Below the pieces are notes generated by a model. The model was not told where the DNA came from and searched no databases. It was given only the letters and a program-made list of their open reading frames with translations. A stretch of 64,000 nucleotides of DNA from Ginglymostoma cirratum (lineage: Eukaryota). The stretch's first letter is position 1. Each line of letters starts with the position of its first letter. Both the position numbers and the translations under genes were made by a program. The DNA lies in contig JAHRHZ010000020.1 of assembly GCA_024137785.1 (NCBI GenBank), forward strand, positions 54,761,049 to 54,825,048. The letters run 5' to 3'. Below, piece by piece: positions 12,716 to 49,495 of this stretch.

Positions 12716-14318
12716 AGAATCCCTGCAGAATAAAAGAAGGCCATTTGGCCCATCGGGTCCACACCCACCCTCTGAAGAGCATGTCAGCGAGCCCACTGGG
12801 TGCCCATAGTCCAACCTCCTCTATTTAATCCTCTATCTGTATGGTGGAGTTCATGTGCAGTGTCGTCACAGGGCAATCATAGGTGAATATATGTCATATT
12901 GGGGTTGTCAGTACATCTGTACACATATAGCAGAATGTGCTGTTGATAAAATTAATCAGCTCAATTGGAAAGAAGCCAGTCTGGAGTCTAGTACCGAGCT
13001 GAGTCAAAGTGTTGGTGGTCCGATGCTGACCTTCCCTTGAAGACATTTCCAATGTGTGTGGGCTGTGTCTGTGTCTGCCAAGAAACAGCAATGAATCATC
13101 TGCTATCCCCACAGTTCCAGGCATTGGTCTCATAATTCACTTGCCTCTGAATCAGATGATCATGGGCTCAAGTCCCGCTCCGGGATGCACCACTACGATG
13201 TATCTAAGGAAGGGGCGCTGTCCTCAAATAAGCAGAAGTTTATTGCGTGCTAGCAATAAATTCTGGAATAGTCACTGGAACCTTAGAGCATTGGCATAGA
13301 CACATCGGCTCCAAATGAAAGCAAAAGTACAACTCCATTTTGCCACCCACAGACTGAGTGTGACATCAGTAGAATGGCCTAGGTCAATGGAGCATGAACA
13401 TTAACCCCTTCAGAACAAGTACTTCATACATTGTTTCATTCAACAAGTTTTCCATCCCCATTCAGTAAGGTAATCCTTCTTTCCTTCTGTCACTTTCCCA
13501 TTTGCCATGTTTGTGTTGAGGTATGGAAGGGACGTTGGCCTGTTGCATAGTTTGAATACACAGGACAAATACCTTTATAACAAATAATCACCTTTCTGTG
13601 TGGAGTAATGATTTTGTTCAAGGAAAAGAAAGGGAATCTCTTGCAAATGTGGCTCACTTGAGTCTACTATCAATGCTAAGACTGAAGGTGCAAACTCTTC
13701 AAAGTTCTGGAGGTGTGTAAAGTTATTGGCATCCTCCTGGTCAAAGTCCAGGCCTAACTGTACTCAGTCCACTCCATACAGTTCAAAACCAGAAGCCAGA
13801 AGATGTAAAAAGGAGAAACAGAGTGGTGTAAAGGAAGAGAGAGAGGCTCTTAGTGCTAGGCAAGGACAGAGTCAAGGAATAAATACCTTGTTACCACTTT
13901 AGAACTGCTCTTCCATTAAAATAAATAGATGTCTGTTCTACCCATACCTTTTCGAAATGAGAGTGTGCAGGATTCATCCAGGTGAATATAATTGATTACT
14001 GCTGATTTCCTGGCTGTCATTTTGCTTTTTAGGAATTGAATCGCAGGCTCGGTTTGAGGAATAAGTGAATGCACGTTCAACACTCCCGACAAGACAGGGA
14101 TCTAAAAGAAAGAGAGGAAGTTGAGATTGGTACACACAACAATTACTATTTCTCACAGTTTTATTTTTGAGCTGAACCCGCAAACACCCATTTTACTAAA
14201 GATACAGTTTTTATCTTTTTCTTGACTGTAGGCACTTTTCTGATTTGTCATTAGTGTCATAGAGATGGACAACAGCCTGGTTATATCTGAAGAAGTCCCT
14301 AACTTCGACTTGGAGTCA

Positions 14319-14675
14319 GTGACCTTCTTCAGAAAGAAGGGTCTAGGCCCGAAACGTCAGCTTTCCTGCTCCTCTGACGCTGCTTGGCCTGAGGTGTTCA
14401 TCCAGCTGTACACCTTGTTATCTTAGATTTAAAAGGGAACTAAGAGGCAACTTTTTCACACAGAGGGTGGTGCGTGTGTATGGAATGAGCTGCCAGAGGA
14501 AGTGGTGGAGGCTGGTACAATTACAACATTTAAAAGGCATCTGACTAAGAAGGGTTTAGAGGGATATGGGCCAAATGCTTGCAGAAGGGACTAGATTAAT
14601 TTAGGATATCTGGTCGGCATGAACGAGTTGGGCTGAAGGGTCTGTTTCAGTGCTGTACATCTCTATGACTCTATG
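14319..14675 (+). mobile_element. Penelope terminus (14319-14425) fused to a CR1 3' fragment (14426-14675)
   Basis: gggtctaggcccgaaacgtcagctttcctgctcctctga...ttgttatct followed by CR1 FTQRVV..WNELP and a ctctatgactctatga tail. Confidence 0.75.
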
Positions 14676-14801
14676 AATCCTTTGCTAAGAAAAGGTGAGG
14701 GGTTAAAATTTGCTCTCACCCAAACTAACTCTAAAATATGACCAAAATGACCACTCCCAATCAATCACACTGACCTCCATCATGTAAACAAGACTTCACT
14801 C

Positions 14802-15304
14802 AAGACTTCATAGTCAAGACCCCTGCTGCTTCACAGCACAAGGTTCAATTCCAGCCTTGTGTGACTATCTATGTGGAGCTTGCACACTCTCCCCCGTGGG
14901 TTTCCCCCCCAGAACTCTGGTTTCCCCCTACCAGAGTCTAAAGACGGGCAGGTTAGGTGGTTTGGCCAGGCTAAATAGCCCAAAGTGTCCAGGCTAGATG
15001 GGTTAGCAATGGGAAATGCATGGTTGTGGGGATAGGGTAGGGTTGTGGGTTTGGGTAAGATGGTCTTCCGAGGGTCAGTGCTGACTCAATGGGTCAAATG
15101 GCCACAACCTGCATTGTAGAGATTCTATGATGCTACATGGCGAGCAGTAATAAATTGCTCTCCTATCATTTTTCTGATGAAGGGTTTAGGCCCGAAACGT
15201 CAAGTTTTCCTGCTCCTATGATGCTGCTTGACCTGCTGTGTTCATCCAGCCCCGTGCTTGTTATCTCGGATTCTCCAGCATCTGCAGTACCTTTTATCTC
15301 TCTC
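14802..15304 (+). mobile_element. Composite insertion: duplicated HE1-SINE-containing segment plus Penelope terminus with hammerhead, bounded by a 13-bp TSD
   Basis: caagacttcactc at 14789-14801 and 15305-15317. 14807-15166 is nearly identical to 16561-16907, and 15167-15302 is the Penelope terminus. Confidence 0.8.
15174..15203 (+). ncRNA. Minimal hammerhead ribozyme motif (Penelope-associated)
   Basis: CTGATGA-A-GGGTTTAGGCCC-GAAA-CGTC: CUGANGA box, GGG/CCC stem II, GAAA box, palindromic ACGT and a GUC cleavage triplet. Confidence 0.6.
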
Positions 15305-16560
15305 CAAGACTTCACTCCCAACCTGCTCAACGAGACTTGACCTAACTTCCTCTACCAATTTGACCAGACATCACATATCCTCTGTGTTAGACCCAACATA
15401 ACTCTCTTGCTTCCACACCCCTTCCAGATCTGATCAGAACCTTAACAGAAATAAAGACAGCAAAACTTCTTTCAAGTGAAATTGTCCTTTTGCTATAAAA
15501 ACTAACCACATGGTGTAAAAAGTATCCGAAACAAACTGCATGGTGAATTCCTCTTTAAGGTTTCTACAACAACAGAACTTTAATAATTACAGCCACCAGT
15601 CAGTAGAAAACTTATCAGATGGGGAAGAGACAGATTAATCTGTTCCTTATGTGCTGCAAATATGTACCCTACGTGTTTTGAATTCCATTCATCAACTTGT
15701 AAACCTGGATTTCTTTAACATTTTTAGATAAATTATTGTAGTGAATAATTGATAAACGTTGCAACATTTGAAAGGAAGCAAAACACTTGATGTTTTAAAA
15801 AGAGAAACCACAGAAGAGGAACTGATGACTCACTCTTGTACACCTTGCAGAGTGGCTGCATTCCTTTCTTTTAACCATGTAGTGACTGTGATGAGCCAAC
15901 TTAAGGTGCGTAGGGACTTGCAATTAATTTGAAAAGCTTTCTATATCAAAGCCAGCTGTTGAATGATTTTGCAATTCTTTTTGGGATGTGGGTTTGATAT
16001 GTATTTATATTGTCATTTCTGGCTATCCTTATAGAATCCTTCTTGATAAAATACTTTCCTTTATATTGCATCTTTCACAAAAAAAATCACAAAGTGACTA
16101 ATCTCGGTTAAGTGGATTGCTTTGTCCTGCGTGGCATTGAACTTTTTGGAAATACTGCACCAGTTAAGTGCAGCAGAAAACTAAACTGATCAGAATCTCC
16201 GGTGTAATTCCAATCTTTGTATCGCAATTCACGTAACAGCTAGTTTTTTAAAGAACTATATTATTTTGGAATGTGTGCATCGCTGCCGAGGCCAATCTTT
16301 ATTATCCATTCCTTTTTGCCTAACTGAGTAACTTGACATGCTATATTTCAGGGCATTTAGGGGTAAATCACATTAGTGTGAGATTAGGGTCATATATATC
16401 CTGAACCAGGGAAGCAGAGAGGATTTTCTTGTGTAGAAGGACTCAGTAAACAAAATTGTATTTTCTTTTCAGATTTTTAAAGACTAAACTCAAGCTGTCA
16501 ATAGGACCCCTCAAAGTGGGATTGAACTCGTGGCTAATAACGTAATCATTAATACGCCTA

Positions 16561-16907
16561 TTCATAGTCAAGACGCCTGCTGCTTCACAGCACAAGGTTC
16601 AATTCCAGCCTTGTGTGACTATCTATGTGGAGCTTGCACACTCTCCCCTGTGGGTTTCCCCCCCAGTGCTACCAGAGTCTAAAGACGGGCAGGTTAGGTG
16701 GCTTGGCCAGGCTAAATAGCCCAAAGTGTCCAGGCTAGATGGGTTAGCAATGGGAAATGCATGGTTGTGGGGATAGGGTAGGGTTGTGGGTTTGGGTAAG
16801 ATGGTCTTCCGAGGGTCAGTGCTGACTCAACGGGTCAAATGGCCACAACCTGCGTTGTAGAGATTCTATGATGCTACATGGCGAGCAGTAATAAATTGCT
16901 CTCCTAT
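16561..16907 (+). mobile_element. 5'-truncated HE1-type SINE with unique flanks (source or partner copy of 14807-15166)
   Basis: B-box ggttcaattcc, body (tgtggagcttgcacactctccc...gcaggttaggtgg), and a CR1-derived tail (gattctatg). Confidence 0.75.
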
Positions 16908-24829: not shown

Positions 24830-26215
24830 GAATACCTGTTCAGAGACTACATGCATTTGGAAAGGCAAGTACTGATTGTGGGTAGTCAGGATGGCTTTGT
24901 GCGTGCGAAATTGTGTCTCACAAACTTGATTAAGCTTTTTGCAGAGATGACCAAGATGATATATGAAAGCAGAGCAGTATACGTGGTCTACCTTCGACAA
25001 GGTTCTTCACAGTAGATTGGTTAGTAAGGCTAGATCACACAGGATTCAGGGTGAGCTTACCAATTGGATACAAAATTGGCTTGATGGTAGGAGACAGAGG
25101 ATGGTGGTAGAGGGTTGTCATTGAGACTGGAGGCCTGTGACCAGCAGTGTTCCACAGGGATCAGTGCTGGGTCCACTGTTGTTTGTCATTTATATAAACA
25201 AATTGGATGAGAACATAGGAGGTGTGGTTAGTGAGTTTATGGGTACAACAAAAATGATGGAATAGTGGATAGTGAAGGAGGTTATCTCAGAATACAAGGG
25301 GATCTTGTTCGACTGGGCCAGTGGACCAAGGAATGGCAGATGGAGTTTAATTCAGATAAATGCAACATGTTGCATTTTGGTAAGATAAACCAGGGCAGGA
25401 CTTCCACAGTTAAAGTTAGGGCCCTGGGGAGTGTTGTTGAACAGAGAGGCCTAAGGCTGTGGAAACTTGACGTTTCGGGCCTAGACCCTTCATCAGAAAA
25501 AATGATTTTTTTTTTCTGATGGAGGGTCTAGGCCCGAAACGTCAAGCTTTCCTGCTCCTATGATGCTGCTTTACCTGCTGTGTTCATCCAGCCCTATGCT
25601 TGTTATCTCGGATTCTCCAGCATCTGCAGTACCTTTTATCTCTGATTCCAACTCCTGTACTCACTCAATGTACTGATTTGCAGTACGGTGTACAATTCTG
25701 GACCCCCTGCTAGAGGAAGGATATTCCTGAACTGGAGAGGGTTCAGAAAAGATTTACCTGGATGCTACAGAGCCTGGAGGATTTGAGTTATAAGGAGAGG
25801 CTGGATGGGCTGGAAGTTTTTTCACTGGAGCGTAGGAAGCTGAGGGGTGACTTTATAGAAGTTTATAAAATTGTGAGAGGCACAGGTAAGGTGAATAACT
25901 GAGGTCTTTTCCACAGGATAGGGTAGTCCAAATCTAGAGGGCATTGGTTTAAGATGAGTGGAAAGATTTAAAAGGGACCTGAGGGGCAACTTTTTCACAC
26001 TGATGATGGTACGTACATGGAAAGAACTGCCAGGGGAAGTGGTGGAGGTGGGTACAATTACAACATTTAAAAGGCATCTAGATGAGTAAATGATTAGGAA
26101 AGATTTAAGAGAGATATGGGCCAAGTGCAAGGAAATGGGATTAGTTCAGTTTAGGAAACCTGGTCAGCGTGGACGAGGTGGGCAAAAGGTCTATTTCCAG
26201 CTGTAGGACTCTAAT
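24830..26215 (+). mobile_element. CR1 (HER1-type) ORF2 RT 3' part, interrupted by a Penelope fold-back at 25461-25642
   Basis: gttccacagggatcagtgctgggtcca (VPQGSVLGP), EWQMEFNSDKCNMLHFG, and the 3' tail. Confidence 0.9.
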
Positions 26216-37540: not shown

Positions 37541-37634
37541 TTATTCATCTGGATTTCCATCCAGAATGGATTTGAATGAAAATGGATTAAACTTGTAGCC
37601 AGCTCCACCATAGAACTTGTTCTGGAACTCAACC
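37541..37634 (-). CDS. ATP6V0A4: V-ATPase subunit a4-like, last coding exon (94 nt including TAA)
   Basis: tag|G GTT. Translates [30 protein letters not shown]; this C-terminus resembles a4 (..PFSFKHILDG..). Confidence 0.97.
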
Positions 37635-41906: not shown

Positions 41907-42614
41907 GGCCCAATGCCATACACTTCAATAATATTCTATAATAAACTATGTAAATAGCAAAGATACATCTCTGCATTGATCTATAGTATTAGTTTTAGAT
42001 TATCTTGAACCCAAATTATTCAGGCTAAACTACAGGCTGCCGACGCCATTGTTTTCTGTACATTCACTATCCAGAGCGGCAGTATCCATGCTCTATAAAA
42101 CATGAAATGGTTCAGCAGGAATTGACAGAATTGACCTGGTGCTCTCTGGCAATTTCAAATGGCAAAACACATGTGGAAGCCATTCACACAATCTACAAAA
42201 CCCACTGTTCTAAAGTCACTGGGTTTCCATTCTTTATTCCCCAAAGACAGTGCCACAAGTTGCCAGGGGAAAATAGTCACGGTTCCGTCACTTGAAATCT
42301 GCAAGACTAATCTTTAGATTATTTCTATTCAAAAACTTTATATTTCAGGATGATCATTGCAGCAGATGGTTGAGAGCAGCACCAGTTGGTGGAATACAGA
42401 TGATAGCCTGTGATGTGAATGCATCTAAAGTAAAAGTCAGAATGGTGCGTGGTTTTGAAAGGAATTTACAAGTTGCGATATATCCATTCACCTACAATTC
42501 CATATCTTATAGAAGGTGGTCAGTTTATTCCATTCCTGTTACTATGTCAATATTCTGGAATACCTGTGCTAACAGTATTGTGGGTAAACTATAAACTGGC
42601 TGTTCAAGAAGGTG

Positions 42615-42824
42615 AGACAACAAGCGTAGAGCTGGATGAACACAGCAGGCCAAGCAGCAACAGAGGAGCAGGAAGGCTGACGTTTTGGGCCTAGACCCTT
42701 CTTCAGAAAATTTTCTGAAGAAGGGTCTAGGCCCGAAACGTCAGCCTTCATGCTCGGCCTGTGTTCATCCAGCTCTACACCTTGTTATCTCAGATTCTCC
42801 AGCATCTGCAGTTCCCACTATCTC
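42615..42824. mobile_element. Penelope-terminus fold-back mini-element with a 14-bp TSD
   Basis: tgttcaagaaggtg at 42601-42614 and 42825-42838. The palindrome is centred on cagaaaattttctg, with an intact plus-strand hammerhead motif at 42715-42744. Confidence 0.9.
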
Positions 42825-42879
42825 TGTTCAAGAAGGTGGTCCAGTTTCAGATGACAAATTGATAAAAAGCACTAAGTGC

Positions 42880-49290: not shown

Positions 49291-49495
49291 TGAGATAACA
49301 AGGTGTAGAGCAGGATGAGCACAGCAGGCCAAGCAGCATCAGAGGAGCAGGAAAGCTGATGTTTAGGGTCCGGACCCTTCTTCAGTCCAGACCCAAAACG
49401 TCAGCCTTCCTGCTCCTCTGATGCTGCTTGGCCTGCTGCGTTCATCCAGCTTGTTATCTCAGATTCTCCAGCATCTGCAGTTCCTACTATCTCTC
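49291..49495. mobile_element. Penelope-terminus fold-back mini-element (decayed hammerheads)
   Basis: gagataacaagg...cagcaggccaagcagcatcagaggagcagga / tcctgctcctctgatgctgcttggcctgctg...ttgttatctc. Confidence 0.85.

Follow-up and report, generated by a model that had tools for sequence, protein, structure and literature searches.

Templated insertions, in which non-element DNA from near the target site is copied in during integration, have been described for human L1. They were counted as 22 of about 3,600, are typically shorter than 250 bp and have their donor within 15 bp (Zumalave et al., 10.1101/2024.08.27.596794). Three cases are ascribed to the reciprocal end (Mendez-Dorantes et al., PMC11702581), and the explanations given are cDNA strand annealing or reciprocal-end processing. 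Among Penelope-like elements, the EN+ Penelope elements of Adineta vaga are reported to capture host DNA (Arkhipova et al. 2013, PMC3846280), and very short Penelope insertions are described as common in Chlamys (PMC9977147). For Poseidon of Anolis, two internal start sites of reverse transcription 30–40 nt apart and an uncleaved RNA template have been reported (Frangieh et al. 2024, PMC11167929); in its accessible text the 5′ junction is not addressed, and the completion of Penelope-like integration after first-strand synthesis is presented as not yet validated. The R2 element is reported to perform extra DNA-templated synthesis after run-off, on cDNA and less often on nearby target DNA, before joining (PMC11371274), and jump-derived extra bases have been noted for a fish LINE (PMC2666801). 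Templated insertion as such is already known for L1. In the openly accessible literature searched, no locally templated 5′ patch of a Penelope element was found.

Here we describe a 516-bp insertion in shark DNA which consists of a short Penelope end and a 360-bp copy of nearby downstream DNA. It lies in a stretch of 64 kb that was analysed as a whole and is called the window below. The locus resembles the L1 cases in that a non-element segment bounded by a target-site duplication (TSD) matches nearby DNA, the donor stays in place and a relative has the empty site, and in that such events are rare. Unlike L1, the Penelope enzyme is a telomerase-like reverse transcriptase with a GIY-YIG endonuclease, and the insertion is germ-line and old enough to have diverged. 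The copy of 360 bp and the donor distance of 1256 nt also exceed the L1 values cited above, which are typical values and not a strict definition. As in Adineta vaga, host sequence is framed by Penelope repeats and a TSD, and an empty site supplies the proof. In Adineta the captured DNA sits between pLTRs and has its source elsewhere, whereas the present locus has one element end, no inverted arm and an adjacent source. The family shares with Poseidon two clusters of 3′ ends, a 30–40-nt tail and an uncleaved template, but has the CX5CxxC linker of Neptune/Nematis, which Poseidon is without. The R2 system, by contrast, is site-specific and engineered, and the nearby template described for it is rDNA (PMC11371274).

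Structure of the insertion

All features are on the plus strand of the window. The insertion is bracketed by a 13-bp TSD with copies at 14789–14801 (left) and 15305–15317 (right); on both strands of the 64 kb the 13-mer is present at these two places only, and the rough chance expectation of such a repeat at both element ends is 3e-4. The left copy is followed by AAGAC and TTCA, which form a 9-nt re-copied piece of the target (14802–14810, equal to 14790–14798). Its last four letters (TTCA, 14807–14810) are common to target and donor and represent a microhomology with the donor start. The templated 360-bp copy extends over 14807–15166, in the same orientation as its donor, which occupies its ancestral position at 16561–16907, 1256 nt (~1.3 kb) downstream of the target site. 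It comprises a short unique left flank, an old SINE body (~14823–15135), which we take to be HE1 following an earlier designation, and a unique right flank. The pLTR end of the Penelope element, assigned to the Neptune type, covers 135 nt (15167–15301) and begins with a junction of CA plus a T run (15167–15173), at which the element and the continuation of the donor have no letters in common. At the 3′ junction, three extra bases (15302–15304) lengthen the terminal (CT)n of the element. After donor position 16907 no Penelope end was present in the window or in the related organism B.

A first-pass annotation of this DNA had described the 13-bp repeat around ~500 bp in three parts, the re-copied AAGAC and the ttca microhomology at the left junction. 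All of its coordinates hold, the re-copied target being 9 nt long when TTCA is included. The non-SINE flanks that it saw on both sides of the SINE are present as well and can be refined to a short left one (~12–16 nt) and a right one of ~30 nt.

The segment is confined to this locus. A query with 14780–15190 gave 40 scored places, two of them near-identical and 38 being SINE relatives at 72–77%. The right flank of the copy had two matches in the 4.36 Gb genome with one mismatch allowed; on the left, SINE family matches begin at 14819–14823. A dispersed chimeric SINE-Penelope family was rejected, as the joined unit was not found in multiple dispersed copies and the segment occurs at two places only. 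Two independent SINE insertions were rejected likewise, the unique right flank having been duplicated along with the SINE. The local donor proposed in the annotation and its argument against two SINE insertions both stood.

In the alignment of copy and donor, 347 columns contain 5 substitutions and 13 further columns are gaps, a difference of 1.4% and one indel complex, in line with the near-identity noticed at first sight. The donor lacks 13 nt near 16667. Since organisms B and C carry these 13 nt as the copy does, the difference is a loss in the donor and not a gain in the copy. At position 14821 organism B has the letter of the copy, and SINE relatives match the copy at 15090 (8/8) and 15113 (7/7). 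Position 14914 is A in the copy and G in both organisms, and 14895 is split, with organism B reading as the donor and organism C as the copy. Assigned to the donor are the 13-nt loss, 16575 and likely 16831 and 16854; assigned to the copy is 14914. Copy and donor changed independently after the duplication, and the skew of changes toward the donor may be due to chance or to a present donor that is another allele than the template.

Empty site in a related organism

Organism B is a relative at about 5% divergence, represented by four runs from four studies whose contigs were aligned at 88% likeness; its larger runs share 13–17% of the words of the window. The run search found no dataset that matched half of these words, and no RNA dataset was listed. 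In each of the four runs, a single contig passes from 14789 straight to 15306 without a break in its own coordinates and skips exactly 516 nt, which equals the insertion plus one repeat and leaves an empty site with a single copy of the TSD. In two runs (X4 and X7) this contig continues through the donor to 17300; run X4 reads target, then 1254 letters, then a single copy of the segment. The donor is therefore ancestral, copying ran from it into the target site, and the copy together with the Penelope end arrived after the split from organism B. The first-pass annotation had expected precisely this of an empty site, a single repeat with the 16561–16907 segment still present. The evidence for the empty site rests on organism B; organism A yielded only short SINE pieces and organism C only the segment itself, and among the contigs examined no read or contig of the window organism spanned the insertion.

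Over 158 copies and 46 columns, divergence from the majority sequence of the Penelope family is 1.06% per site. Because this value lies close to the 1.4% between copy and donor, the ages are compatible with one event. A mismatch in age between the copy and the element end, which is identical to other copies, had been considered and was dropped after the family divergence was measured.

The Penelope family and its hammerhead

Many copies at other places in the genome match 15170–15301 at 100% identity, and two junction patterns of the family had 1704 and 3500 exact genome matches. Judged by its sequence, the end belongs to a young, putatively Neptune-type family. A longer copy with the same end (L014) encodes a C-terminal GIY-YIG endonuclease domain (PF01541, E = 1.1e-5, above the cut-off), in which the frame reads VVYC..C..C...YIG, with two cysteines between GIY and YIG, and has a CX5CxxC linker motif at residue 128, upstream of the endonuclease. 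A CX2-5CxxC linker combined with internal cysteines is given as the Neptune/Nematis pattern in PMC8557442; the linker does not separate Neptune from Nematis, and the Neptune-type assignment is based on motifs, domain and pLTR features together. The family features present are a pLTR with a minimal hammerhead, an optional tail of 30–40 nt, a frequent inverted 5′ arm and a TSD.

A minimal hammerhead core (CUGAUGA, extra A, helix II, GAAAC-GUC) lies at 15174–15201. The motif as defined in PMC4209133 was used for comparison, the type I minimal hammerhead of metazoan Penelope-like elements comprising the core, an extra base before helix II, a palindromic 15.2-16.2 and a helix I of 4–5 bp. At the locus, helix II has four pairs and helix I three (four in long copies), and the extra A and an ACGU palindrome are present. 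A scan against Rfam gave no match at the gathering score, and the minimum-energy fold of the monomer did not form the full hammerhead. Of the "intact hammerhead" reported earlier, the minimal core could be retained and the full motif could not. The predicted cut after 15201 falls inside the insertion, so the RNA template would have been uncleaved, in agreement with in vitro findings; on this prediction, self-cleavage by the hammerhead did not shape the insertion. Counted from the start of the core, 3′ ends fall at ~90–99 nt in 80 and at 130–139 nt in 91 of 191 copies. By analogy with known systems, the short elements are likely to have arisen by run-off at the front of an autonomous element's RNA.

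Survey of other insertions

The survey covered 199 loci, of which 191 had a readable 3′ end, seven an unreadable one and one no core. The sample was non-random: it was taken from the contigs that head the list, readable 5′ sides were the criterion for 20 of the first 30 loci and identity to the window copy for 29, and at least two pairs of loci are the two arms of one insertion. Flanks of 10 kb were available for 80 loci, ~8 kb for 60 and 3 kb for 59. A TSD, mostly of 12–17 bp, was called in 137 of the 191 readable copies, and the 13 bp found in the window are typical of the family; 54 copies had no called TSD, six had a weak distant one and 26 more had 5′ parts that were only partly readable. 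Base counts at the target sites showed a mild A-rich bias upstream.

A script flagged 21 of the 137 with at least 20 nt of extra non-reference sequence, most of which proved on reading to be element-derived filler. Local same-strand copies remained in 2 of the 137 other insertions with a called TSD (~1.5%, 95% interval 0.2–5.2%). One of them, L088 (G000:C3, ~10690200–10690600), has a 14-bp TSD and a donor that lies 691 nt downstream; the copied stretch of ~210 nt takes in an older Penelope arm and shows a 32-nt skip where it meets a repeat. The other, L193 (G000:C4, ~868800–869000), also has a 14-bp TSD and carries 66 nt from ~220 nt upstream, in the same strand; TCCC (4 nt) is common to the target side and the element side has no shared letters. 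Neither donor has a Penelope end at the junction. The recurrence of nearby matches in TSD-bounded ends, which the annotation had put forward as a genome-wide check, is seen at these two loci. As a separate observation, L088 illustrates that what looks like an element with two arms can owe one of them to the copying of a neighbour.

Two further insertions of the 137 contain flanking DNA from distant Penelope ends. L138 (G000:C12, ~4101700–4103600) has a 16-bp TSD, an inverted arm and 1353 nt of the upstream flank of L181 (G000:C21, ~29599900–29601400), a simple Penelope insertion of 100 nt that lies on a different contig; the two are 99.9% identical over 1452 nt. In L085 (G000:C3, ~4330300–4330600), 60 nt stem from the flank of the insertion L246 (G000:C3, ~4523400–4523600) at a distance of 193 kb, and 13 nt are skipped where a repeat occurs. 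The source ends L181 and L246 are still in place. The element half of L085 is the common variant (132/191) and L246 the rarer one (4/191); because of this difference, a homology-guided switch, suggested to have taken place in the hammerhead region, is the likely origin of L085, in preference to plain read-through. The pair L138/L181 also demonstrates that short Penelope ends can move more than 1 kb of host DNA.

In a TSD-blind control with preset limits (at least 30 nt at no less than 94%), local matches were found for 2 of 108 5′ sides and 4 of 462 control windows, which is not significant (p = 0.32); with a threshold chosen afterwards (60 nt, 98%), the counts were 2/108 and 0/462, a borderline result (p = 0.036). 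The case for recurrence rests on bracketing by TSDs and not on the TSD-blind counts. Several candidates were set aside, L201 for its position inside a tandem repeat, L096, L150 and L164 as false or weak duplication calls, and L155 as carrying extra sequence that is element-derived and common to L022. Long T runs (13 to >30 nt) fill the 5′ junctions of L075, L105, L140 and L147, which suggests untemplated addition of A to run-off cDNA.

Genomic surroundings

A search for host genes near the site, with 250 open frames (150 plus 100 of 199 selected) compared with Pfam, found only exons of a V-ATPase 116-kDa a-subunit gene (PF01496) on the minus strand at 37574–64000 of the window. The genome has four such gene loci. 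The insertion is ~20 kb from the last V-ATPase exon found, and no nearer gene was found in this search. No effect on a gene was seen, the duplicated DNA being mostly old SINE and far from any exon found.

The window contains 14 matches to the Penelope end. An older end (~88% to the young one) is located at 14281–14430, 400 nt upstream of the insertion, and is preceded by a small inverted repeat (14281–14295/14324–14338). Further two-armed ends occupy 25461–25643, 42607–42825 and 49292–49495.

Discussion

We interpret the locus as the product of one insertion event, in which genomic DNA served as the template for the copy during the sealing of the 5′ side, and assign this reading a probability of roughly three in four. 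The order of steps that we infer would begin with the GIY-YIG endonuclease of an autonomous Neptune-type Penelope element, which would cut the two strands 13 nt apart. Its reverse transcriptase would then prime at an internal start site and copy ~135 nt, running off at the front of the uncleaved RNA just upstream of the hammerhead. Next, the other free target end would re-copy 9 nt of the target overhang, anneal via TTCA to the donor and be extended by 360 nt. A homology-free join between the patched strand and the cDNA end would come last, and filling of the gaps would give rise to the TSD.

Whether the target end or the cDNA end did the copying is a close call. Priming from the target end is slightly favoured, because microhomology is found on the target side only, and none on the element side, both in the window and at L193. 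A cDNA end that did the copying first and the annealing last would nevertheless leave the same target-side microhomology. A host repair polymerase and the Penelope enzyme are both candidates for the polymerase. The first-pass annotation had inferred a Penelope insertion with a template switch onto nearby DNA or RNA. Its single Penelope-made insertion and local donor are retained here, but an RNA template found no support, and as for switching by the reverse transcriptase itself, the microhomology pattern at the junctions fits priming from the target end, which is proposed for L1 (PMC11702581), at least equally.

Among the alternatives, the one we rank highest, and still consider improbable, is a carry-over in which the donor allele once had a Penelope end after 16907, whose flank was copied along, by read-through RNA or by a homology-guided switch into a site 1.3 kb away, before the donor allele was replaced. 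Such a route exists in the family (L138 from L181, L085 from L246), and the donor holds more derived changes than the copy. A source element is, however, absent downstream of the donor segment in both the window and organism B, the same loss would have to be assumed at L088 and L193 as well, and in both proven cases the source end remains and is distant. Ranked behind it, and improbable too, is a sequence of two steps, in which an ordinary short Penelope insertion first made the 13-bp TSD and host repair alone later patched a break at the 5′ junction. Templated patches with microhomology are a general signature of DNA repair, but here and at L193 the patch sits exactly between an intact left TSD and an untrimmed element start, and the re-copied 9 nt start at the start of the TSD, as expected with an open overhang. 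The compatible ages of element and copy speak against two steps as well.

Lower again we place a host-RNA template, with the reverse transcriptase jumping from the front of the Penelope RNA onto nascent plus-strand RNA of the donor and then joining the target. All three local copies (window, L088, L193) are in the orientation of the element itself, and the lack of element-side homology recalls the end-to-end jumps reported for non-LTR enzymes in PMC11371274 and PMC2666801. Yet three of three in one orientation corresponds only to p = 0.25, and the 250 open frames scanned give no sign of a gene or plus-strand transcript close to the site. Last comes an assembly artefact that duplicated 16561–16907, which we judge very improbable. 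No read of the species itself was seen across the insertion, but each copy has private differences, the relatives share the 13 nt that the copy keeps and the donor lacks, and the junctions show a perfect TSD and a re-copied piece of target; an assembly duplication was rejected on these grounds.

The view that these mini-elements drive a local duplication mechanism was overstated: at ~1.5% of insertions (2/137), local copying is a by-product and not a dedicated duplication system. A broader and more speculative proposal, doubtful when its parts are taken jointly, is that Penelope insertions in the shark are finished by DNA-templated copying by the telomerase-like Penelope enzyme itself, in two modes. 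The first would be microhomology-primed copying of DNA within ~2 kb (window, L088, L193), and the second a homology-guided switch onto another genomic Penelope end, with its upstream flank carried along (L085). L138, with 1.35 kb, perhaps belongs to the second mode.

The locus offers an unusually clean footprint: the empty site is known, the donor has been kept, the junctions can be read, and no inverted arm obscures the sequence of events. The survey provides a first rough rate (2/137 local and 2/137 distant carry-over) together with testable junction rules. Extrapolation to ~5,200 exact matches (1704 plus 3500, with two entries for each two-armed insertion) would put the size of the local class in the tens (~10–270). 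If the proposal that the Penelope enzyme itself completes the insertions were true, about 3% of the insertions of one young family would duplicate host DNA, the thousands of ends of 100–135 nt would constitute a genome-wide source of duplications, and loci of this kind would allow the second half of Penelope integration to be read from natural insertions.
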